Below are positions 4,568 through 64,000 of a stretch of 64,000 nt of DNA, piece after piece (the first letter of the stretch is position 1; the number at the start of each line of letters is the position of its first letter). The DNA comes from a virus. The stretch is taken from positions 31,607-95,606 of the IMG/VR virus record IMGVR_UViG_3300008216_000009. One strand, 5' to 3'. The notes under the pieces were generated by a model that was not told the origin of the DNA, did not search any database, and saw only the letters and a list, made by a program, of their open reading frames with translations. The position numbers and the translations under genes are program-made.

Positions 4568-6143
4568 GAGACCCCGTACCACTGTTTCAGAATTAGAAGT
4601 CTCTATCATAGGGGCTATAGATGGGTATTTTTTAAAATATGGGTGGGGCGATGAGGATTTTGTAGATGGTGACATGGGTGATGCGGGCAGATGGGTTACT
4701 ACCACTCCCGATGTTAAGGAAACTAAACAAGTAGCCTCCCCTAGTGACACTCCAGTGGAGTCCCCAGAGCTTCCAGCCGACGTTGAAATGCCAGAAGCCG
4801 TAGGTAAGGACTGGAGCAGCGGGAAAACTCCTGCCCCAGTCAGCCAGAGCTATAGCATGGACTTCTACGGCGGTGGAAATGAGGAGGATTTTGCAGCCGC
4901 CCCAGAGTGGATAACCCAGGAGCGGGAGGGTGGGTACTCCGCAGGAGCCGTTTCAACCCCGAAGGTAACATCACAACCTGTTCAAACGACGGAGGAGTAT
5001 TATGATGCTGATATTGCGGAGGAGACACTTACGCCTTATGTAGCCCCAGTATCCACTGTGGACACTTCTAGTTATGAGGATGCAGATGCTTATGCATCCG
5101 AATATGAGTCAAATATACCCATTCCCCCTACCGTAGAACCTTCTCCGACTAGTGACCTGGATTCGGATGTGGCGGCTTATGAACCTTATGATAGTCAAGA
5201 AGAATGGTTGGGGGGGTATGTAGCCCCTGCCGCAGGGTCATCATCGGTTGACCCAGTCGATACCTATTCGTCTGGACAATGGGATGATGACCCTGAGGCA
5301 GATATTCACGGAGATTTCCCTAATTATGGTGGGGGATCACCCATTACTTCCCAGCCTTCACCTATCCCTGTAGACACTTCTAGTTATGAGGATGCTGATA
5401 CCGAATGGACATATGATTTTCCTAGTCAGACAACTGACCCCCTCCCTCCTGTTAGCAATGCAGATCCTACACCCGATTATGGGGATGCTGATCAGAGCTA
5501 TGACCCGAATTTAGAGCCACTTATACCAATAACAGACAACACTGTGGGGAGTGTAGATCCTATAGATACAGTAGCTATAGGAGTTACCGATCCCGATAAT
5601 GTTGCCATAGATCATAGAGGTCCCGGTTCGTCTGGTTCTAGTGGTAATATGGGTGGTTCCTCAGGAACCATTGATAATGATCAAACCGACTCCGTTGTCC
5701 CTGGAGAACATGAAGACGACGGCGGCAACTGGTTCACGAATTTCCCAGGTAATGTTGTCGATGTTGGTGGTGATGTGGTTAGTGGTGGAAAAGATCTTGT
5801 TTCGGGTGCCTATAATACTGTCACCGATGCGGCGGGTAAGGTTTATGACCTAGCGTCTGCTGGGGTGGGCAGTGGGATTGATATCGCAGGTAATTTCGTA
5901 GATACTGCTGCATCAGCAGCAGGTTTACTGCCGTGGACTGAGTCCAACCTGAATATACATGATTCAGGCACCACATCATCCGCCAACACTGCTGTTGCTC
6001 ACCTGGGCACAGGTGGGTCTGGCCCAGGTACTCCTGCTTACATACCCGACAGGGACGGCTACGATAAGAGTAAGAGTCGTACATGGGGCCATGAAGATGA
6101 TAGTATAAAGGAAATAACCAGCTATTTAGAGCGGTACGGATAG
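4551..6143 (+). CDS. acidic low-complexity protein, putative internal head/ejection protein
   Basis: 530 aa, rich in D/E/S/T/P/G, internal VDTSSYEDAD repeats, tag-like helices at both ends. Confidence 0.55.
   Translation: MSRNSRRPRTTVSELEVSIIGAIDGYFLKYGWGDEDFVDGDMGDAGRWVTTTPDVKETKQVASPSDTPVESPELPADVEMPEAVGKDWSSGKTPAPVSQSYSMDFYGGGNEEDFAAAPEWITQEREGGYSAGAVSTPKVTSQPVQTTEEYYDADIAEETLTPYVAPVSTVDTSSYEDADAYASEYESNIPIPPTVEPSPTSDLDSDVAAYEPYDSQEEWLGGYVAPAAGSSSVDPVDTYSSGQWDDDPEADIHGDFPNYGGGSPITSQPSPIPVDTSSYEDADTEWTYDFPSQTTDPLPPVSNADPTPDYGDADQSYDPNLEPLIPITDNTVGSVDPIDTVAIGVTDPDNVAIDHRGPGSSGSSGNMGGSSGTIDNDQTDSVVPGEHEDDGGNWFTNFPGNVVDVGGDVVSGGKDLVSGAYNTVTDAAGKVYDLASAGVGSGIDIAGNFVDTAASAAGLLPWTESNLNIHDSGTTSSANTAVAHLGTGGSGPGTPAYIPDRDGYDKSKSRTWGHEDDSIKEITSYLERYG
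5061..5395 (+). repeat. 23-bp exact direct repeat GACACTTCTAGTTATGAGGATGC (5061-5083 and 5373-5395)
   Basis: Read directly; in-frame, encodes DTSSYEDA. Confidence 0.9.
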
Positions 6144-6170
6144 GGTGTTCAATCTAAAGGTAAGGGGATT

Positions 6171-6497
6171 GTGGGAATTATGACTTTAGTCAACAAGGTT
6201 AAGAGATCAAAGGGAATACAGGAAGTAGAGAAAAAACGAAAACTTAACATAGCCTGGATCCTTGAAAATAAGGGAGATCTGTTAGAGAATTATCCTAATC
6301 GTTGGGTAGTAGTGGACGATGAGTCAATACAGTTGGTAGAGATTGATTTCTCTAATATGTATCGAAATATGAGAAATCGTGGATTGAATGACACATTGGT
6401 TTATTATTACGTTATTGAGTTGGATCCGCCCCCAATATTTGTGACCCCAGTGGAGATAGAATATGACTGGTCAGAAAAAGCCGGATGGTACAATTGA
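6171..6497 (+). CDS. DUF5678-like protein
   Basis: W..EN...LLENYPNRWVVV pattern. Confidence 0.55.
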   Translation: MGIMTLVNKVKRSKGIQEVEKKRKLNIAWILENKGDLLENYPNRWVVVDDESIQLVEIDFSNMYRNMRNRGLNDTLVYYYVIELDPPPIFVTPVEIEYDWSEKAGWYN

Positions 6498-11220: not shown

Positions 11221-12279
11221 ATGGCAAATCGCCAAGAAGAACTGTTGCCTATTCTCAAGGCTCTTCGGGAGTATATATCCAAGGAGTATGCGGTAAATTA
11301 TCCCCCGCATGTCCGTGGTGAAGATGCTTCCAACAAGGAACTTCCTGCTAACTGGCAGGATAAGCTCGACCCCATCACGGGTGGAGACACTGTGGGTAGG
11401 GACAAATTCGGATCTCAGGGCCAGAATACGACAAAAGCTGGCTCACAGTCCGAAGATGCCTATATCCATAAGTCTGAATTGGAGCAGATCCTTAAGGATT
11501 TTGTTTCCAAGCACTACGTGGATGGTATGGACGTTCAGCAACGTGGCGCACGTGGCGACAATGCTGGATTTGCCTACCCGGGTGAAGAGCGAAGAGTTCC
11601 TGAGGGCTTAGAGAAGCACCATGGGGAAGAGATGGAGAAGAACGAGGAAGAGTTGAACGGGAACGGATTCCCGCCGCCAGCAGAAGAGGAAGAGAATGGT
11701 CTTCCTACTATGGAAGAGGCTGGCGAAGAGGAAGAAGATGACGTGCTGGGCGAGGAAGAGGAAGACGAGGAGATAGAGGGCGTTGCTGCGGGCAATATGG
11801 CCTATAGCAAGGACCGAGCAGTTTCAAATCTTCTCAAAGATATTAAGGGTCTTCTAGTTCAGAAGCAGACCGAGAGGTCTGAGTTTGGCAGTCTTAAGAA
11901 AGAGTTGGACATCATAAAGAAGTCCATGCCCAATCAGATCAAGCAGGGTGTCACTGCTGGGATGAAGAAGTTCAATTTGAATCCTAGTGTTAGTGATCAG
12001 GCTACAAGGGTTCCAGTTGGGGCGGCTTCCCCTCCTGCAGCCTCGCCTATGCCTGACAAGAGAATCGGCGTTGAGGGAGAGTCTTTTGCTAAGACGGATC
12101 CCGAAGCCAATTGGGCAGCCCAGGAACAGTTTACTAACGCCGTTGAGACGATTTTGAGCGGTAACGACGCTGACGACATTCGAGGCACCTTCAAGAAGGT
12201 TAACTCGATGAGGAATCAGTCTGGTGAGCTTACGCCGCAAACCCTGTACTACTATCCTAGGAACGGGGGCGCACAGTAA
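11221..12279 (+). CDS. capsid scaffolding protein
   Basis: Between protease and MCP; Glu-rich linker, coiled-coil segment, many Phi-x-K sites. Confidence 0.75.
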   Translation: MANRQEELLPILKALREYISKEYAVNYPPHVRGEDASNKELPANWQDKLDPITGGDTVGRDKFGSQGQNTTKAGSQSEDAYIHKSELEQILKDFVSKHYVDGMDVQQRGARGDNAGFAYPGEERRVPEGLEKHHGEEMEKNEEELNGNGFPPPAEEEENGLPTMEEAGEEEEDDVLGEEEEDEEIEGVAAGNMAYSKDRAVSNLLKDIKGLLVQKQTERSEFGSLKKELDIIKKSMPNQIKQGVTAGMKKFNLNPSVSDQATRVPVGAASPPAASPMPDKRIGVEGESFAKTDPEANWAAQEQFTNAVETILSGNDADDIRGTFKKVNSMRNQSGELTPQTLYYYPRNGGAQ

Positions 12280-13595
12280 TGACAACGCAGAATGATCTCT
12301 CCATAGCTGAATATATCGGTGCTGCCGAGCGAAACCTTCGCTCAAGTCTGATGCCGCCTGGGTACTTTGCTAAGCAGACGTACCTGCAGGTATCGGACGT
12401 GTTCACGGCGACTTATGGCCGCAAGGTCTGGGACGCATTGAACAACCAGACCCGGTTCTGGAACATACTTCGAAAGGTACAGTGGGGTCCCACAACTGGT
12501 TGGCGTGTTCGCTCCGACAGGGGTTCGAACCGCTCTCGACCAGTGACTGAGACTGGAGCACTTCCTACTGTCGATGTCTCTGCCTATCAGGCAGTCGATT
12601 CGGCACCAAGGATTATGGCTACAGACTTTGGTGTCTCACTCAAGTCCCAGATTATGTCTGGGTTGGAAGGTGGCATGGGCGACAACCTTGCGGTTGAGCA
12701 AGAAGCTGCTGCAAGGGACCACATCAAGGAGCTTAACTCTGAGCTTCTTCTTCGCTCCAACGGAATTGTCACCACAGGTGGTGCCTCTGCTACAGGGGCA
12801 GTGTTAGGTGCTGGTAATACGTTCCGAATTGGTGACACCATTAGTGACACGGGTCTCAGTGATGCTTCAAAGGTAATTTCGGGCATCTCTGGTAACGTTC
12901 TTACTTATACTGGTGGTGGAAACCTTACAGACGGTGCTATCGCTTATGCGAAAGCCCGTGCTGGTCTGACCTCGATTGATGACATCGTTGAGCAGGACGC
13001 TCGTACTATTGCGGGTGTTACCCTAGGCTCTGGCATCGGGGCAGATGTTTACAACCAGTCCACTAGGACGGCGGGTGCGTGGAATGCTGCTGCAACTGTT
13101 CTTGCGAATAGTGGCACAGGCAGGAACCTTACCCTGTCTCTCCTAGACCAGGCCATTAGGGAAGTTCGTATCAATGGTGCGGATCCCGACGTAATCCTTA
13201 TGGGTTACGACCAGTTCGACAGGCTTTCTTCACTCCTACAGGCGCAGCAGCGTTACATGGACTGGGGCGAGTTCGTTGTAAAGGTTGGCGACGAGAGTAC
13301 CCTTCCCGGTTCGCATGCTGGGTTCCAGGTTTCGACCTATAGGGGTATTCCAGTCATCGTGGATCCCGACATCCAGACTTCCTACACGGCTGCGGATGCC
13401 GAACTTGGCTCTAACGTGTACGTGCTTGACACGAGGTATCTGGAACTCGCTATTGCTGCTCCTACGCAGTACATCGATAACAGGGACTTCTTCCAGGCGA
13501 ACGCCTTTGTCCTTCGTGGACTCTTCTACACCATTGGTGAGTTGAGGGCACTTCGTATGGATACACACTCCAAGATCACGGATTTGAATGCTTAG
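12279..13595 (+). CDS. major capsid protein (HK97 fold)
   Basis: YGRKVW..LN, GWRV, LTLSLLD, G..PDVILMGYD, LLQAQQR, AGF.V.TY.GIP, Y.LDT.YL, PTQY, GEL motifs; followed by a terminator; likely propeptide cleavage at FAK/Q. Confidence 0.9.
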   Translation: MTTQNDLSIAEYIGAAERNLRSSLMPPGYFAKQTYLQVSDVFTATYGRKVWDALNNQTRFWNILRKVQWGPTTGWRVRSDRGSNRSRPVTETGALPTVDVSAYQAVDSAPRIMATDFGVSLKSQIMSGLEGGMGDNLAVEQEAAARDHIKELNSELLLRSNGIVTTGGASATGAVLGAGNTFRIGDTISDTGLSDASKVISGISGNVLTYTGGGNLTDGAIAYAKARAGLTSIDDIVEQDARTIAGVTLGSGIGADVYNQSTRTAGAWNAAATVLANSGTGRNLTLSLLDQAIREVRINGADPDVILMGYDQFDRLSSLLQAQQRYMDWGEFVVKVGDESTLPGSHAGFQVSTYRGIPVIVDPDIQTSYTAADAELGSNVYVLDTRYLELAIAAPTQYIDNRDFFQANAFVLRGLFYTIGELRALRMDTHSKITDLNA

Positions 13596-58478: not shown

Positions 58479-60788
58479 ATGACTGTTGGTACTACTGGCA
58501 ATTTTACGGAGAATGCGGTTTCGGTATTGGAGAAAAGATATCTTCTTAAAGACGGTGAGGAGACGGAGTCTCCAGAGAAAATGTTTTCACGTGTATCAAA
58601 ATGTCTATCTGAGGTAGAGAGTAATTATCGTGTATCAGGCAAGGAGATACGTGAATTAGAGAAGTCATTCTTCGAATTAATGTGGAGTTTGGATTTTGTG
58701 CCGAACTCCCCTACGTTGATGAACGCTGGTACAGGCCAAGGTACTTTGAGTGCTTGCTATGTTTTGGACATAGATGATTCCATGGAGGGCATCACTACTA
58801 CTATCAAGGATCAGGCTTTTATTGAAAAGTTTGGTGGTGGAGTTGGGTTTGCTTTGAGCGGCATTCGGCCTAAAGGTAGACCAATTACTACCACCCAGGG
58901 GGCTGCTTGTGGACCCATAGCCGTTCTTCGTGTTCTTTCTGAAGTAGGCAATCTTATCACCCAGGGCGGTAAACGTGCTGGTGCCCATATGGCTATCATG
59001 AGTGTTTACCATCCAGATATAGAAGAGTTTATAACTTGTAAGAATGTTGAAGGCCGTATAGATAATTTCAACATATCCGTTGGGGCTGATTCGAATTTCA
59101 TGGAAGCAGTGAAGAATGATCAATATATAAACTTTACCTGGCCTCTAGATAAGAATAGATATTATGAGGATCAGCTTGATGCTGATCGTAAACAACCGGG
59201 AAAATCTATGAAGGCTCGTGATTTATTCAACAAGATTGTTTCTGGTGCCTGGAAAAATGGAGAACCGGGCATGGTCTGGTTAGATAGGATTAACGAAGAC
59301 AATACTACTCCACAGATTGGCAGAATAAATGCCACTAATCCTTGTGGGGAGCAGCCTCTTTTATCTGGGGAATCTTGCAACTTAGGGAGTATTAATTTAG
59401 GAAATTTCTATTTAGAAAATGAGGGAGGTTCTTATGGTTTTGATAGTAGTAGATTCGATGAAACTGTAAAGCTCAGTGTTCGTCTACTAGATAATGTGGT
59501 TGATGCTAATAATCATCCCACCGATAAGACTCGTGAGATGAACAAGCTTACTCGAAAGATAGGTCTGGGAGTTATGGGGTGGGCTGATTTACTTACTAAG
59601 TTGGGAATTCCATATGATTCAGAAGAGGCTCTTGAACTCGGAAATTTGATTGCTAGCAATCTTAAAGATACTGCTGACAAGGAAAGTTCTCGTTTGGGTA
59701 AATTAAAGGGCAATTTCCCCGCTTTTGATGAATCTACACTGAATAAGAAGAATGGGGGCAAATGGGATTATATGAGAAATGCCTGGAGGCTTTCCATTGC
59801 CCCTACTGGAACCATAAGTATGATTGCTGATGCTTCATCAGGTATAGAGCCTCATTTTTCTCTTTCCTATAAGAAGCACAATATGTCTTCTCAGCTTGAA
59901 AATACAGAGTTATATTATATAAATAAATATTTATTAGATTATGTACCTGACGGGTTGGATGTAGATAAATATCTTGGATCGGGTAAGGCATTGATTGATT
60001 TTGTTCCAAATGATAGAAAAAATCATTTTCGCACTTCTAATGATATTACTCCTGAATGGCATGTAAAAATGCAGTCAATTTGGCAGCATCATGTTGATAG
60101 TGGGATCTCCAAGACTATAAATATGCCTTTTGAGTCCTCTGAGGAGGACGTAGACAAGGCGTATAGATTAGCTTGGTCTTCTGGGTGTAAGGGCATCACT
60201 GTCTACCGAAATGGATCTAGACAGAAAGAGGTACTTGTATCTACAGAGCTTAATATAGGTGCGTCGGATACAGATGGGCTTTTGCCTATTCAAGTATCGG
60301 TTAATTTTGATAGACCTGAGGTTTTGGATGGTCAGACTTGGAAAGTACCTACAGGGCATGGAAATATGTACGTCAATTTAAGTTTCCATGAGAATAGACT
60401 TGTGGAGTTATTCGCTAATGTAGGGAAGAGTGGGGCCAGCACAAATGCACAGATAGAGGCTTTGGGTAGAGTAATCTCTACGGCGTTACAGCATGGTGTA
60501 CCTGCCCCTGATTTAGCTAAGCAGTTGAGAGGAATTAATTCAGATAAACCTGTATATCATAAAGGCAGATTGATACGATCCACGCCTGACGCAATTGCTT
60601 GGGTACTTGATCAGGTGTCTGATAAGGTTCAAAGCAGCACTGATGTTCAACATAGTTTCCAAGAGAGTGTAGAGCCTATTTTTATGTCGGAGGATAGGGT
60701 GGAGTGTCCAGATTGCGATAGCGATTCTATGGTGCAGGAAGAAGGTTGCATGAAATGCTATTCATGTGGATATTCTGCTTGTAATTGA
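58479..60788 (+). CDS. nrdJ: class II (adenosylcobalamin-dependent) ribonucleotide reductase
   Basis: PNSPTLMNAG, LSACY, GGGVG, TNPCGEQPL....CNLGS.NL, IAPTGTIS, ISKT.N, KG.TVYR.GSR, TSCPD-like domain, C-terminal CxxC...CxxCG.S.C; no R2 gene. Confidence 0.95.
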   Translation: MTVGTTGNFTENAVSVLEKRYLLKDGEETESPEKMFSRVSKCLSEVESNYRVSGKEIRELEKSFFELMWSLDFVPNSPTLMNAGTGQGTLSACYVLDIDDSMEGITTTIKDQAFIEKFGGGVGFALSGIRPKGRPITTTQGAACGPIAVLRVLSEVGNLITQGGKRAGAHMAIMSVYHPDIEEFITCKNVEGRIDNFNISVGADSNFMEAVKNDQYINFTWPLDKNRYYEDQLDADRKQPGKSMKARDLFNKIVSGAWKNGEPGMVWLDRINEDNTTPQIGRINATNPCGEQPLLSGESCNLGSINLGNFYLENEGGSYGFDSSRFDETVKLSVRLLDNVVDANNHPTDKTREMNKLTRKIGLGVMGWADLLTKLGIPYDSEEALELGNLIASNLKDTADKESSRLGKLKGNFPAFDESTLNKKNGGKWDYMRNAWRLSIAPTGTISMIADASSGIEPHFSLSYKKHNMSSQLENTELYYINKYLLDYVPDGLDVDKYLGSGKALIDFVPNDRKNHFRTSNDITPEWHVKMQSIWQHHVDSGISKTINMPFESSEEDVDKAYRLAWSSGCKGITVYRNGSRQKEVLVSTELNIGASDTDGLLPIQVSVNFDRPEVLDGQTWKVPTGHGNMYVNLSFHENRLVELFANVGKSGASTNAQIEALGRVISTALQHGVPAPDLAKQLRGINSDKPVYHKGRLIRSTPDAIAWVLDQVSDKVQSSTDVQHSFQESVEPIFMSEDRVECPDCDSDSMVQEEGCMKCYSCGYSACN

Positions 60789-60993
60789 TATGTTAAGAAA
60801 TAAAAAAGCTTCAGTTGCCGTTAGTAGTGCTATAGTAGTAGTTATGGTTGCGGCAGCGGGATATTGCATTGCTAAAAGGTTAGATGGTTGGAATAAGTCT
60901 AAAGATGAATTAGGAGCTATACCGTGGGATGTGCCAAAAGAGTACACGTCTTGGAAAACTTTTTTTAGGAATCCAAAAACAGGGCAGATCTAA
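60766..60993 (+). CDS. small single-TM membrane protein
   Basis: VAVSSAIVVVMVAAAGYCI helix; start may be ATG 60790. Confidence 0.55.
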   Translation: MDILLVIDMLRNKKASVAVSSAIVVVMVAAAGYCIAKRLDGWNKSKDELGAIPWDVPKEYTSWKTFFRNPKTGQI

Positions 60994-61018: not shown

Positions 61019-61432
61019 ATGGGATTACTCAGTTCTATAACTAAACTTTTTCAGAAAGATCCCCCGGTAAGTGAGTGTTGTGTGGATGGGGTATGCGTCT
61101 GTTCGTCTGATGGAGATGATCTGGTTTCAGATGTTACTGTAGCTACCACCACTGCTACCTCGGCGGGTGTTGTTACGATTTCTACAGATACTGATGTTCC
61201 TACTTCCACATCATCTACGCCCAGTACTGTAGAGTTTACGCCCCAATCTGTTGCTTCTGCTGATGAAATAAACATAGCACTGGAGACGGCTGCTGAGGCC
61301 GATAGGGAAGCAGCAGAGAATTATACTCCAACTCCTCCACCTGCTGCTCCACCAAAGAAGAAGAGAGCTAATGCTAAAAAAGCCAGTTCAAAATTGAATC
61401 GTAAATCAACTACTAGAAAGAAGAAGAGTTGA
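61019..61432 (+). CDS. hypothetical protein with Cys cluster, S/T linker and Lys-rich tail
   Basis: ECCVDGVCVC; PKKKRANAKKASSKLNRKSTTRKKKS; TGATG overlap with the next gene. Confidence 0.65.
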   Translation: MGLLSSITKLFQKDPPVSECCVDGVCVCSSDGDDLVSDVTVATTTATSAGVVTISTDTDVPTSTSSTPSTVEFTPQSVASADEINIALETAAEADREAAENYTPTPPPAAPPKKKRANAKKASSKLNRKSTTRKKKS

Positions 61433-61665
61433 TGGTAGAGATATATACAAGTATGGGTTGAGGTCCCTGCCACATGACGAAAGCGTGGCTTTCGGGCAAG
61501 GGAATCTCTTTTACTGAATTTAACATTTCTGTGGATATGGATGCTGGTGCACGTCTGCGAGATTTGGGGTACAGGTCAACACCAGTAGTTCGCATAGGAA
61601 ATGAGTTTATTGTTGGCTACAGTCCCCAAAAACTTGAGGCTGCTTGCAATACATATGGGCTATGA
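61432..61665 (+). CDS. nrdH: glutaredoxin/NrdH-like redoxin, probable selenoprotein (U-G-P-C; TGA at 61459-61461)
   Basis: MVEIYTSMG*GPCHMTKAWLSGKGISFTEFNI...LGYRSTPVVRIG...VGY; the TGA sits exactly at the first Cys of CxxC; ATG overlaps the upstream stop (TGATG). Confidence 0.85.
61460..61508 (+). promoter_or_regulatory. bacterial-type SECIS-like hairpin
   Basis: GCCAC (61469-73) pairs with GTGGC (61485-89), apical C-GAAA-G loop 17 nt after TGA; outer TCCCT/AGGGA pairing. Confidence 0.65.
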
Positions 61666-64000
61666 CTCAAGAAAAATATAGACTATCTGAGATTCTGACC
61701 CTTCTTGCCTCTACAGAGTATCTATATAAGCAGGGGATAACTTCTCACGTCCCCCCAGAAAAACGCTACTACCACCCTGAAGGGAAACATACAGGACCCA
61801 GGGGTGGTCGTTTTTCTATTATTGGGGTAGAGACAGATCCTCATGGAAATCCACTTGGTCAGCCCGTTCCCACTCTGGCTCCGGGCATGGAGAATGAAAG
61901 TGTACGGGCCTGGATAGAGAGGGATTCCGAAGCTCAGCATGTTCTAAACACCCTATCTCAGTACGGCGATCCCTATGTGGTCGGTGGGGGCGTTAGAGAT
62001 GCATTACTCGGAGTACCAAGTAAAGACGTAGATATTGAAGTTTATGGTTTGACCATCGATGAGCTATCAGACATTGTCCAAAAGGATTTGGGGGGCAAGC
62101 AGAATCAGGTAGGCAAGATCTACGGTGTATTCAAAGTTGGGGATTTTGATATCTCCCTACCTAGGACTGAGACTAAGGTTGGAGATAAGCATACCGATTT
62201 TGATGTGGAGCCTAACCCTAATTTATCTCCAGAATTAGCGGCTAGACGTAGAGATTTTACGATCAATGCGTTGATGTACGATTATAAAAATGACAAAGTG
62301 TTGGATTTTTTTGGGGGCATACAGGATTTAGAAGCGAAACGTATCAAACATGTAAGCCCGGAAACCTTTGTTGAGGATCCACTCCGTGTTTACAGGGCTG
62401 CACAGTTTGCTTCTCGGTTTGATTTTTCTATAGATCCATCTACCCAGGAACTGGCTCGTTCGATGGATTTGTCTGAGATATCTAATGAGCGGGTTTTTGG
62501 GGAATTCGAAAAGTTATTATTGAAGTCCCCTACCCCATCTACAGGTATACAGGCACTGGATGATATGGGAGTGCTGGATACCCAGTTCTCAGAAATCTCT
62601 GCACTGAAGGATACTCACCAACGTAGTGATTACCACGCTGAAGGTGATGTATTTATTCACACTAAGATGACTCTGGATAAAGCAGCAGAGATTATCCAAC
62701 GTTTTCCAGATGAAAAAGATAAAACCATTATCATGCTGGCTGCGTTATGTCATGACCTGGGTAAGCCTGAGACCACTACCTCAGATGGTAGGGCTATCGG
62801 TCATGAGGCAGCGGGTGTTCCCATAACAGAGGAATTCCTGGGCAAGTTAACTAATGACAGGGACATCTTAGCCACAGTTCCCTCTCTAGTTGAGAATCAC
62901 CTCAAGCCTCTTCAATATCATCGAGACGGGGCTTCAGATGCCGCTTTCAGGCGATTAATCAATAAGCATGGGACTGAGTACCTAAATCTTCTTTCTGCTG
63001 TGTCTGAGGCCGATGCAAGTGGAAGATTAGTTAAAAATCCTGATGGTTCGATGACTGAGCATGGAAATGAGGAGAATGTTTGGTTCCGGGATCGAATTAA
63101 GCAGGTTTCTGAGGCTGGTGGATTAAAAGAGGGGAAGATAGCTCCCCTTCTAACAGGCAATGATCTGAAGGGTCTTGGCTTTAAAGAAGGGCGTGAGCTT
63201 GGAGACATCCTTCGTGATGTTCAAGGGCAGCAGGAAGAGGGAGAGATAGCTTCTGCTGATGAAGCTTTGGATTACGTTAGAAATAAGTATCAATTTGCTA
63301 CAGAGCATTTATCTAAACAGGGAATAACTCCGTCCCAAGAGTGGACTTCAGGATTTGTTCCACCTGAAAAACGTTTCTACCATATGGAAGGCACCCATAC
63401 GGGTCCTAGAGGCGGCAGATTTTCTATCATAGGTACAGAAGTAAATGAACATGGTGATTCCTTAGGTCAACTTTCACAGGCACAACCTCCTGGCCCTCAT
63501 GATATAAGCGAACTTCCGATGCCCCCTCAGCAGGGTAACATCCTTCCACAGCCGGAAGATGCTGTTATTTCTTCAGAAGCAGAAGAACGAGAGTGGATTG
63601 AAGATAATATTGAGTATGATTGGAGTATGGCTGATGAGGGAGAGGAAGTTGCTCGTGTTATATGGGGGTCAAAGGCTGGAGATACTTTAGAAGTATATGA
63701 TTTAGACAGTGTGGGATATGCAGATGGGCCATCCGGGCTTAGAGGCATACATGTAGGTGATCCAGATTTTTGGAGACAGCAGTTACAAGATGATTATGGA
63801 TTAGATGCTGCTGACGCACAGACCATAAAAATACGTACTGAGGAGGGAGATGCGTATTTACCTGATCAGCAATATAACATACCTCCCGAAGTTGGAGAGG
63901 CTGGAGAGGCAAACGTATTAGTCACAAAACGTACTCAGCTAGAGTACGGTAAAGATTGGGTGTTTGAGGGGGAGAGTTTTGAGCCTAAGCCTCAACAGGC
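61662..64000 (+). CDS. cca: polyprotein: leader + class II CCA-adding tRNA nucleotidyltransferase with HD domain + leader + further domain; 3'-truncated, absent from ORF track
   Basis: ATGA overlap, frame open to window end; VGGGVRDALLG...KDVDIEV, RRRDFTINA, DFFGG..DL, EDPLRV.R..QF..RF, ERV..E..K, H.EGDV..HT, LCHDLGKP, GHE. Confidence 0.92.
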   Translation, partial: MTQEKYRLSEILTLLASTEYLYKQGITSHVPPEKRYYHPEGKHTGPRGGRFSIIGVETDPHGNPLGQPVPTLAPGMENESVRAWIERDSEAQHVLNTLSQYGDPYVVGGGVRDALLGVPSKDVDIEVYGLTIDELSDIVQKDLGGKQNQVGKIYGVFKVGDFDISLPRTETKVGDKHTDFDVEPNPNLSPELAARRRDFTINALMYDYKNDKVLDFFGGIQDLEAKRIKHVSPETFVEDPLRVYRAAQFASRFDFSIDPSTQELARSMDLSEISNERVFGEFEKLLLKSPTPSTGIQALDDMGVLDTQFSEISALKDTHQRSDYHAEGDVFIHTKMTLDKAAEIIQRFPDEKDKTIIMLAALCHDLGKPETTTSDGRAIGHEAAGVPITEEFLGKLTNDRDILATVPSLVENHLKPLQYHRDGASDAAFRRLINKHGTEYLNLLSAVSEADASGRLVKNPDGSMTEHGNEENVWFRDRIKQVSEAGGLKEGKIAPLLTGNDLKGLGFKEGRELGDILRDVQGQQEEGEIASADEALDYVRNKYQFATEHLSKQGITPSQEWTSGFVPPEKRFYHMEGTHTGPRGGRFSIIGTEVNEHGDSLGQLSQAQPPGPHDISELPMPPQQGNILPQPEDAVISSEAEEREWIEDNIEYDWSMADEGEEVARVIWGSKAGDTLEVYDLDSVGYADGPSGLRGIHVGDPDFWRQQLQDDYGLDAADAQTIKIRTEEGDAYLPDQQYNIPPEVGEAGEANVLVTKRTQLEYGKDWVFEGESFEPKPQQ
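61713..63470 (+). repeat. duplicated ~50-aa leader (TE.L.KQGIT...VPPEKR.YH.EG.HTGPRGGRFSIIG.E...HG..LGQ) at 61713-61862 and 63300-63470
   Basis: Translated directly; copies flank the CCA enzyme. Confidence 0.92.

Follow-up and report, generated by a model that had tools for sequence, protein, structure and literature searches.

The gene described here lies in a window of 64,000 nucleotides, which represents the 3' two-thirds of a single virus contig of 95,606 bp with a GC content of 44.6%. It occupies positions 61432-61665 on the + strand and encodes a redoxin of 77 residues that sequence, Pfam and fold designate as NrdH/YruB-like with a glutaredoxin fold, and whose active site would read U-G-P-C, U being a putative selenocysteine (Sec). 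Upstream on the + strand, the gene at 58479-60788 encodes NrdJ, a class II (adenosylcobalamin) ribonucleotide reductase (RNR) with a Cys-rich C-terminal tail (TIGR02504, 621.7 bits for a cut-off of 399.95). Two ORFs of the same strand stand between NrdJ and the redoxin. The first (60766-60993, 75 aa) belongs to no known family and is kept in some of the related viral loci; the second (61019-61432, 137 aa), also without a family, is rich in Thr, Ser and Pro with a Lys-rich tail and ends on a stop codon that overlaps the start of the redoxin gene. Downstream, the gene at 61662-63998 (+ strand) combines a poly(A)-polymerase/CCA-adding head with RNA-binding and HD domains and runs past the contig end. 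Judged from its sequence, the contig is tailed-virus DNA; its structural genes encode an HK97-type major head protein, a prohead protease domain, a tape measure protein and a minor tail protein.

The start codon of the redoxin, ATG at 61432-61434, shares its A with the stop codon of the upstream ORF (TGA, 61430-61432) in a TGATG overlap, and the redoxin stop overlaps the start of the next gene in the same compact way (ATGA). From 61432 the frame reads MVEIYTSMG-TGA-GPCHMTKAWL... and terminates at its own TGA at 61663-61665. The in-frame TGA (61459-61461, + strand), our candidate Sec codon, is codon 10 and stands at the position of the attacking cysteine. The second, resolving cysteine of the UGPC motif is encoded by TGC at 61468-61470 (+ strand) and forms an invariant column of the alignment (C13). 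In a table-11 ORF listing, the redoxin begins only at ATG 61474, with 63 aa and without the active site. A preliminary description of this DNA had remarked on that late start, which the ORF list reproduces; it had placed the true start at the ATG overlapping the upstream stop, and the TGA at the attacking cysteine of a CGPC motif, and both points agree with the coordinates and with the alignments of solved NrdH and glutaredoxin (Grx) chains.

When the TGA is translated as a residue, the product matches the Pfam Glutaredoxin family (PF00462) with 54.3 bits, for a cut-off of 22.9, over profile positions 1-60 of 60. The NCBIfam NrdH models TIGR02194 and NF007657 gave 60.0 vs 85.75 and 38.2 vs 131 bits, respectively, and the best-scoring NCBIfam model was that of the YruB family, TIGR02196, with 71.2 bits for a cut-off of 88.55. 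Because these scores stay below the curated cut-offs of both NrdH and YruB, we name the redoxin NrdH-like and not NrdH. A structure model computed from a 27-sequence alignment (mean pLDDT 97.5) displays a beta-alpha-beta-alpha-beta-beta-alpha arrangement, which is the thioredoxin-fold order. The closest solved structure, given by the best Foldseek match, is NrdH from M. tuberculosis (4hs1, TM 0.88); other near folds are those of the NrdH-like BC3987, C. glutamicum NrdH, E. coli NrdH and cGrx1 (35-37% identity). In every solved NrdH/Grx chain that was aligned, residue 10 corresponds to the first cysteine of CxxC. A 63-aa product starting at ATG 61474 would miss the whole active site together with the first beta-strand of the fold.

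Conservation of the in-frame TGA

The TGA at 61459 is not an assembly slip. Marine and hydrothermal-vent metagenomes contain the stretch in 20 sequencing runs, belonging to 19 studies; no RNA run figures among the sequencing runs listed. Contigs from 4 runs of 4 studies, two of which may be near the source sample, all display TGA at 61459-61461 and no other letter, hence neither the TGT nor the TGC that would point to an assembly error, a possibility raised in the preliminary description.

A protein search returned 13 relatives of the redoxin. Twelve have 62-63 residues and start exactly at a Met or Val past the active site, a pattern that is expected where gene callers halt at a conserved TGA; the only relative with 77 residues contains C-G-P-C. 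A scan of viral contigs with the single redoxin protein gave no match, and an alignment-based scan of viral contigs gave 1 locus. We worked at the DNA level with 1 viral and 25 metagenomic loci translated through the TGA position, comprising 21 family members and 5 outgroup glutaredoxins. TGA was observed at the same codon in 20 of the 21 family members, at identities down to 48%. The exception, locus L005 (P0002), has TGT, and the outgroup glutaredoxins (L022-L026) have Cys. An alternation of TGA and Cys in this column, as had been anticipated, is thus what the homologues display.

Two subfamilies can be told apart. The first, subfamily A, groups the window with loci L001-L008, carries the peptide H-M-(T/A/S)-K-A-W-L-S-G and has TGA in 7 of the 8 related viral loci. 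In 7 of these relatives NrdJ lies just upstream and is followed by small ORFs and then by the redoxin, as in the window, where NrdJ is 0.7 kb away; L002 is too short to reach NrdJ, so the synteny count rests on 7. Since NrdJ is just upstream and 61-86% identical to that of the window, we consider these loci to be related viruses. Subfamily B (L009-L021) carries the peptide H-M-V-K-V-Y-L-S-R and has TGA in all 13 of its metagenomic members, in the context of a bacterial chromosome: the gene follows rpoC and is near CorC- and FecCD-type transporters. Patterns derived from subfamily B confirmed relatives in 106 stretches of GTDB species genomes. The best 80 of these 106 are all titled Dehalococcoidia, SAR202 or Chloroflexota, and among them the active-site TGA was found in 77 of the 77 SAR202/Dehalococcoidia genomes where the motif could be located. 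The same species genomes scanned with patterns of the viral subfamily yielded no relative, so that the viral hairpin variant described below was not encountered in the species genomes searched. Viral and Chloroflexota sequences fall on either side of a single branch of a maximum-likelihood tree, with 100/100 support. The very long outgroup branch prevents a reliable rooting, so that the tree does not tell which way the gene was transferred between virus and SAR202.

Gene callers give only the 63-aa ORF from ATG 61474, and one could thus suppose a pseudogene or a sequencing or assembly error, from which only this C-terminal ORF, or nothing, would be made. To this idea we give practically no credit. 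The TGA is identical in independent assemblies from many studies, and the product would have neither the active site nor the first beta-strand. Moreover, the nine N-terminal codons ahead of the TGA are conserved at the protein level, with the peptide (V/I)-Y/F-T-S-x-G kept in the presence of synonymous variation.

Recoded phages exist, so that TGA could also be imagined as a sense codon, for Trp or Gly, in the genetic code of the virus or its host. Against this, TGA terminates 32 of the 103 long ORFs of the 95.6-kb contig, the redoxin gene itself and its neighbours included, while in long genes, NrdJ for instance, no TGA occurs in frame. According to ARAGORN, the only tRNA of the contig is a tRNA-Tyr, with neither a tRNA-Sec nor a suppressor tRNA over the 95.6 kb. 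A whole-contig scan for other TGA-interrupted genes gave 5 further cases, none with a redox motif; they resemble ordinary adjacent ORFs and nothing among them was convincing. Finally, Trp or Gly in place of the attacking cysteine would inactivate the site. As TGA is an ordinary stop here and tRNA-Tyr is found without any suppressor, we exclude an alternative code for this contig, with the barest residual doubt. The contig is nevertheless incomplete, and a virus-borne tRNA elsewhere in the genome cannot be excluded; another contig on record, of 130 kb, encodes an identical redoxin.

The hairpin downstream of the TGA

The candidate bacterial SECIS is a hairpin at 61478-61494 (+ strand), within the codons for T-K-A-W-L-S. 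It consists of a 7-bp helix, CGAAAGC/GCUUUCG, closed by the loop GUG (61485-61487). When the 62 nt that begin at the UGA are folded, the minimum-free-energy structure pairs CGAAAGC (61478-84) with GCUUUCG (61488-94) around the GUG loop. These 62 nt have a z-score of -3.2, against -3.3 when only the hairpin is considered. In subfamily B, from SAR202, the helix is GUGAAAG/CUUUCAC, also of 7 bp but shifted by one pair relative to the viral one, with a 5-nt loop UGUAY. The spacing from the UGA to the apical loop is 23 nt in the virus and 22 nt in SAR202.

The preliminary description had proposed a stem-loop right after the TGA, with a GCCAC/GUGGC stem and GAAA as its loop. A SECIS-type hairpin does lie there, but GCCAC/GUGGC, although complementary in this copy, is neither the favoured nor the conserved fold, and GAAA is no loop, being part of the 5' arm of the CGAAAGC helix. 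In 70 of 78 distinct sequences the two arms of the GCCAC/GUGGC stem (11-15/27-31) do not pair. The stem also shares bases with the conserved helix, with which it competes in subfamily A, the only one where it can form; we thus rejected it as a functional element. In some minimum-free-energy folds a lower stem CCC/GGG also appears, with no co-variation visible by eye at third-codon positions.

Covariation was analyzed on 78 distinct 48-nt sequences from both subfamilies. Position 20 pairs with position 36 in all of them, as U-A in 70 and as C-G in the other 8; the pair 24:32 occurs as A-U or G-U, and four pairs are invariant. In the loop, column 27 is G in 77 of the 78 sequences and column 28 is U in all 78, and this G-U is kept in both subfamilies. 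The switch from C-G to U-A combines the replacement of Thr, Ala or Ser by Val with a synonymous change of Ser from TCG to TCA. This is essentially a single compensatory event, separating the viral from the bacterial subfamily; it leaves covariation statistics with little to rest on, and we do not rely on shuffle statistics.

It has to be kept in mind, where conservation of the hairpin is concerned, that it falls inside the conserved peptide K-A/V-W/Y-L-S. Codon usage gives a further view. Over 86 distinct bacterial genes, the synonymous entropy of the stem codons is 0-0.4 bit: Val is GTG in 86/86, Lys is AAA in 79 and AAG in 7, the second Val is GTG in 85/86, Leu is CTT in 86/86 and Ser is TCA in 86/86. 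Elsewhere in these genes, codons for Val, Leu and Ser reach 1.6-2.2 bits in most cases, and the loop codon TAY varies. Within the hairpin, the changes tolerated concern the last base of the loop and the Lys codon, where AAG instead of AAA replaces an A-U pair by G-U. We regard this synonymous constraint as stronger evidence for the hairpin than the compensatory change.

A search of Rfam with 61350-61700 gave no family match even at E up to 10; bacterial SECIS elements are scarce in Rfam. Published bSECIS criteria require a loop of 3-9 nt, an upper stem of 4-16 bp, a UGA-to-loop spacing of 16-37 nt, a G in loop position 1 or 2 followed by G or U, and an energy of at most -7.5 kcal/mol (PMC13188914). 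The viral hairpin meets those for stem (7 bp), loop (3 nt), G-U and spacing (23 nt). The energy of the 40 nt past the UGA is -13.3 kcal/mol for the virus and -10.8 kcal/mol for the subfamily B locus L013; for the minimal hairpin, the values are -6.7 and -6.5 kcal/mol. The 40-nt element thus satisfies the energy limit, whereas the bare hairpin falls short of it.

Selenocysteine machinery, host and client

No selA, selB or selD was found on the 95.6 kb of the incomplete virus contig. On the other hand, the complete machinery was observed in bacteria carrying the sister gene; the preliminary description had called for a look at the sel genes of predicted hosts. Four near-complete SAR202 genomes with the subfamily B gene contain a tRNA-Sec whose anticodon is UCA (66-70 bits, and also recognized by ARAGORN), SelB (313-341 bits for a cut-off of 242), SelA (about 550 bits) and SelD. 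The latter has one in-frame TGA and would thus itself contain Sec. At 34 nt past this SelD UGA stands a stem with a loop GUG, GUU or N-GU-N-N and compensatory changes between genomes. The SAR202 decoding system evidently reads the loop signature of the virus, which argues for compatibility but is no proof of the host.

We propose the following mechanism. The virus would infect a Sec-competent bacterium, where SelB of the host, loaded with Sec-tRNA(Sec), would bind the hairpin 61478-61494, whose loop starts with G-U, and bring Sec to the ribosome paused at the UGA 61459. Translation would then go on to the redoxin's own TGA stop, which has no hairpin. The virus would contribute nothing but the signal in its mRNA.

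Read-through of the UGA without selenium can be envisaged as well. A Cys-accepting tRNA-Sec-like molecule, a near-cognate Trp- or Cys-tRNA, or a generic read-through stimulated by the hairpin would yield a Cys or Trp protein. We have no biochemical data to oppose to this idea, and the Cys variant L005 has retained the hairpin, so that a Cys protein appears viable. Nevertheless, the spacing of the hairpin and its G-U loop match the signature of a SelB-dependent SECIS, and the bacteria of the sister family possess canonical tRNA-Sec, SelA, SelB and SelD. In addition, TGA and not TGY is kept in 97 of the 98 family members tallied, under purifying selection, which is hard to explain with a Cys product. 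Selenium-free read-through is thus improbable, without being as remote as a broken gene or a recoded TGA.

Altogether, these comparisons lead us to conclude that 61432-61665 is very probably a Sec-encoding gene with a functional SECIS, the incorporation of selenium being inferred without any biochemical data. The UGA is kept over deep divergence, with Cys in L005 and in the outgroups; the codons upstream of it are conserved and the hairpin is constrained; the viral contig has no tRNA-Sec or suppressor and the bacteria with the sister gene have the full Sec machinery. The initial proposal of a UxxC redoxin whose UGA is read as Sec by means of a bacterial-type SECIS and host machinery has therefore passed every comparative test that was run.

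The identity of the host is inferred only. An in-ORF SECIS of bacterial type, together with replication genes that are also of bacterial type (DnaB, the DnaG primase, the family A polymerase PolA, RecA and RuvC), argues for a bacterium. SAR202 is the leading candidate because the redoxin has close relatives in cells only there, as far as they were found. In GenBank the head protein comes closest to haloarchaeal tailed viruses, with no more than 22-28% identity, and no homologue of it was found in 401 Dehalococcoidia genomes. NrdJ shares at most 52% identity with Dehalococcoidia proteins; in the absence of other phyla for comparison, this similarity is not diagnostic of the host. SAR202 is a deep-ocean group, which fits with the marine and hydrothermal-vent metagenomes containing the stretch. 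Although the host has not been identified, we would put SAR202 at about an even chance.

What would be the client of this redoxin? Redoxins of the NrdH type supply ribonucleotide reductases with hydrogen and are themselves regenerated by thioredoxin reductase, and the Cys-rich C-terminal tail of class II RNRs takes electrons from such redoxins. We thus infer a route in which electrons would pass from a host enzyme of the thioredoxin-reductase type to the U-G-P-C selenol/thiol, then to the C-terminal cysteines of NrdJ and finally to its active site. This route appears the most likely one owing to the Cys-rich tail of NrdJ, the conserved gene order and the known function of NrdH-type proteins. 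Our leaning towards NrdJ as the client is nonetheless a modest one, as it rests only on the conserved neighbourhood and on known NrdH-type roles.

Indeed, a genuine selenoprotein could serve another client and behave as a general thiol/selenol oxidoreductase, acting in peroxide or disulfide stress or on another viral or host protein. The sister gene of SAR202 follows rpoC, beside transporters and with no adjacent RNR, which means that an RNR role would be specific to the viral context, where it is unproven. Between NrdJ and the redoxin stand one to three small ORFs unrelated to them, and a known bacterial Sec-glutaredoxin reduces methionine sulfoxide reductase, to judge from the title of Kim et al. 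2011. However, NrdJ is found upstream in the 7 related loci that are long enough even though its identity there is only 61-86%, the closest solved folds are NrdH-type reductants of RNRs, and NrdJ has the C-terminal tail required to accept electrons. A client other than NrdJ is in our opinion unlikely, though it has to be taken seriously, and reduction of NrdJ remains the function that we favor.

Relation to known selenoproteins and redoxins

Sec-containing glutaredoxins with a UxxC motif are an accepted family of bacterial selenoproteins, present in ocean metagenomes (PMC13188914, PMC2398784). The viral redoxin resembles one of them, cGrx1 from Clostridium (Alkaliphilus) oremlandii, in its PF00462 domain and in having Sec first in UxxC, and the solved Cys form of cGrx1 (7c10/7c12) superposes on it with a TM of 0.86-0.89 and 35-37% identity. 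As in the bacterial Sec-glutaredoxin, a hairpin within the ORF directly follows the UGA. Unlike cGrx1, to which it is about 36% identical, the redoxin is encoded by a virus beside NrdJ and has a thioredoxin-type G-P between Sec and Cys, and its closest sequence relatives belong to the SAR202 family, not to Clostridia.

A second comparison can be made with NrdH from E. coli, Corynebacterium and M. tuberculosis and with BC3987 from B. cereus. The redoxin shares with them its size, its fold (4hs1, TM 0.88; 1h75, TM 0.83), the position of CxxC at the start of helix 1 and the proximity of a ribonucleotide reductase. Its G-Y-S-P motif also corresponds in position to the G-F-R-P of NrdH. NrdH proteins use Cys, in CVQC or CMQC motifs, and serve class Ib RNRs, whereas the redoxin has UGPC and a class II RNR as its neighbour.

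The nearest counterparts are the Sec-redoxins of SAR202/Dehalococcoidia, with 48-64% identity, the same UGPC-H-M, the same hairpin position and G-U in the loop. They differ in that the SAR202 genes follow rpoC and carry GUGAAAG/CUUUCAC with UGUAY, whereas the viral genes follow NrdJ and carry CGAAAGC/GCUUUCG with GUG. We found no description of this chromosomal family in the literature searched. As for the signal itself, it agrees with the E. coli fdhF-type/bSECIS consensus in being a stem-loop within the ORF, 3' of the UGA, with a small G-U loop at 16-37 nt (PMC13188914). The viral hairpin has, however, no sequence similarity to the E. coli fdhF-type SECIS and no match in Rfam, and its recognition by a SelB is inferred.

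Virus-encoded selenoproteins are known from poxviruses, namely the glutathione peroxidase (GPx) of molluscum contagiosum and fowlpox viruses (PMC1802603). A parallel can be drawn, as both cases depend on the Sec machinery of the host. But the poxvirus proteins come from animal viruses, with a eukaryotic SECIS and a GPx fold, and the redoxin from a tailed virus, with a bacterial-type SECIS and a glutaredoxin fold. The full-text literature searched returned only eukaryotic viruses, with no selenoprotein described for a virus of bacteria, and phages or viruses are not mentioned in recent selenoprotein reviews, the GOS study or the paper on the bacterial selenoprotein database. What is most likely new is the combination: a selenoprotein type and a decoding signal that are both known, here carried by a virus of bacteria and associated with a class II RNR.

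Putting these elements together, one can picture a deep-ocean lineage of tailed viruses, probably infecting SAR202, that encodes an NrdH-like reductant containing Sec, intended for the B12-dependent RNR of the virus itself, and that borrows SelB and tRNA-Sec from the host by means of a virus-specific variant of the SECIS. This complete picture could as well prove wrong as right. If confirmed, it would mean that viruses exploit the UGA recoding of their host with a hairpin of the mRNA alone, and that a viral module of nucleotide synthesis is tied to selenium and cobalamin, both trace nutrients, in the deep ocean. It would also expose a systematic annotation error, the viral gene and about 100 SAR202 genes being annotated as fragments of 63 residues that lack the active site. 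For a virus group without any cultured relative, it would provide a mechanistic constraint on the host, which would have to be a Sec-decoding bacterium, with SAR202 as first candidate. The supply of dNTPs to the virus, and hence its burst size, would then depend on the selenium status of the host, and selenoprotein genes could serve as markers for the host range of uncultured viruses.

The bacterial sister family and SelD of SAR202

A Sec-containing NrdH-like redoxin, with the peptide UGPC-H-M-V-K-V-Y-L-S-R, is widespread in SAR202/Dehalococcoidia, as observed in matched stretches of species genomes (L027-L106) and in metagenomic loci of subfamily B, the bacterial sister family of the viral redoxin (L009-L021). 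Among the best 80 of 106 genome stretches, in most of which the redoxin match lies at about 6001-6225, the motif could be located in 77 genomes, and all 77 carry TGA at the active site. The gene typically lies downstream of rpoC, and its entries in protein databases are fragments of 62-63 residues from which the active site is missing.

One member of subfamily B, L011, was found on a contig of 8210 bases, where the redoxin gene adjoins FecCD/periplasmic-binding ABC transporter genes. Because the GC content of this contig is only 34%, far below the 57-66% of the other five loci measured, L011 may derive from another lineage.

In SAR202, SelD too is a selenoprotein, with the site C-A-G-U-A-S-K (loci L112-L116). 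In these loci, a candidate SECIS lies about 34 nt 3' of the UGA; its stem displays compensatory changes and its loop reads GUG, GUU or N-GU-N-N.

Metagenomic matches limited to the core

Several more contigs in two metagenomes, one marine and one from a hydrothermal vent (runs X14 and X15), match, at 90% or more, only a core of about 40 nt (window 61456-61497) that comprises G-UGA-GPCHM and the hairpin. Their flanks are unlike the window (for example ...K-A-W-L-S followed by Q-R-G-V-P-F-V-E) and their depth exceeds that of the virus. These contigs are probably additional family members with a viral-type hairpin, whose context is unknown.

Viral genes and the NrdJ tail

In GenBank, the major head protein (12279-13595, +) has phage relatives only among haloarchaeal tailed viruses, plus a single Methanofastidiosa virus, and shares 22-28% identity with them. 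Of bacterial type, by contrast in kind only, are the genes for replication: DnaB, DnaG, PolA, RecA and RuvC.

The start of the redoxin gene is coupled to an ORF (61019-61432, +) whose product is rich in Cys at the N-terminus, in Thr/Ser/Val/Pro over a long middle part and in Lys/Arg in the tail. This ORF had no family match, and its conservation was seen only in the closest relative, the viral locus L002. On the other side, the redoxin stop overlaps (ATGA) the start of a long ORF (61662-63998, +) with a poly(A)-polymerase/CCA-adding head as well as RNA-binding and HD domains. With at least 779 residues, and still open at the contig end, it far exceeds a CCA-adding enzyme in length.

The C-terminal tail of NrdJ (60700-60788, +) contains seven cysteines (C-P-D-C ... 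C-M-K-C-Y-S-C-G-Y-S-A-C) and resembles the zinc-finger/redox tail that many class II ribonucleotide reductases carry. It is likely that the redoxin docks at this tail.
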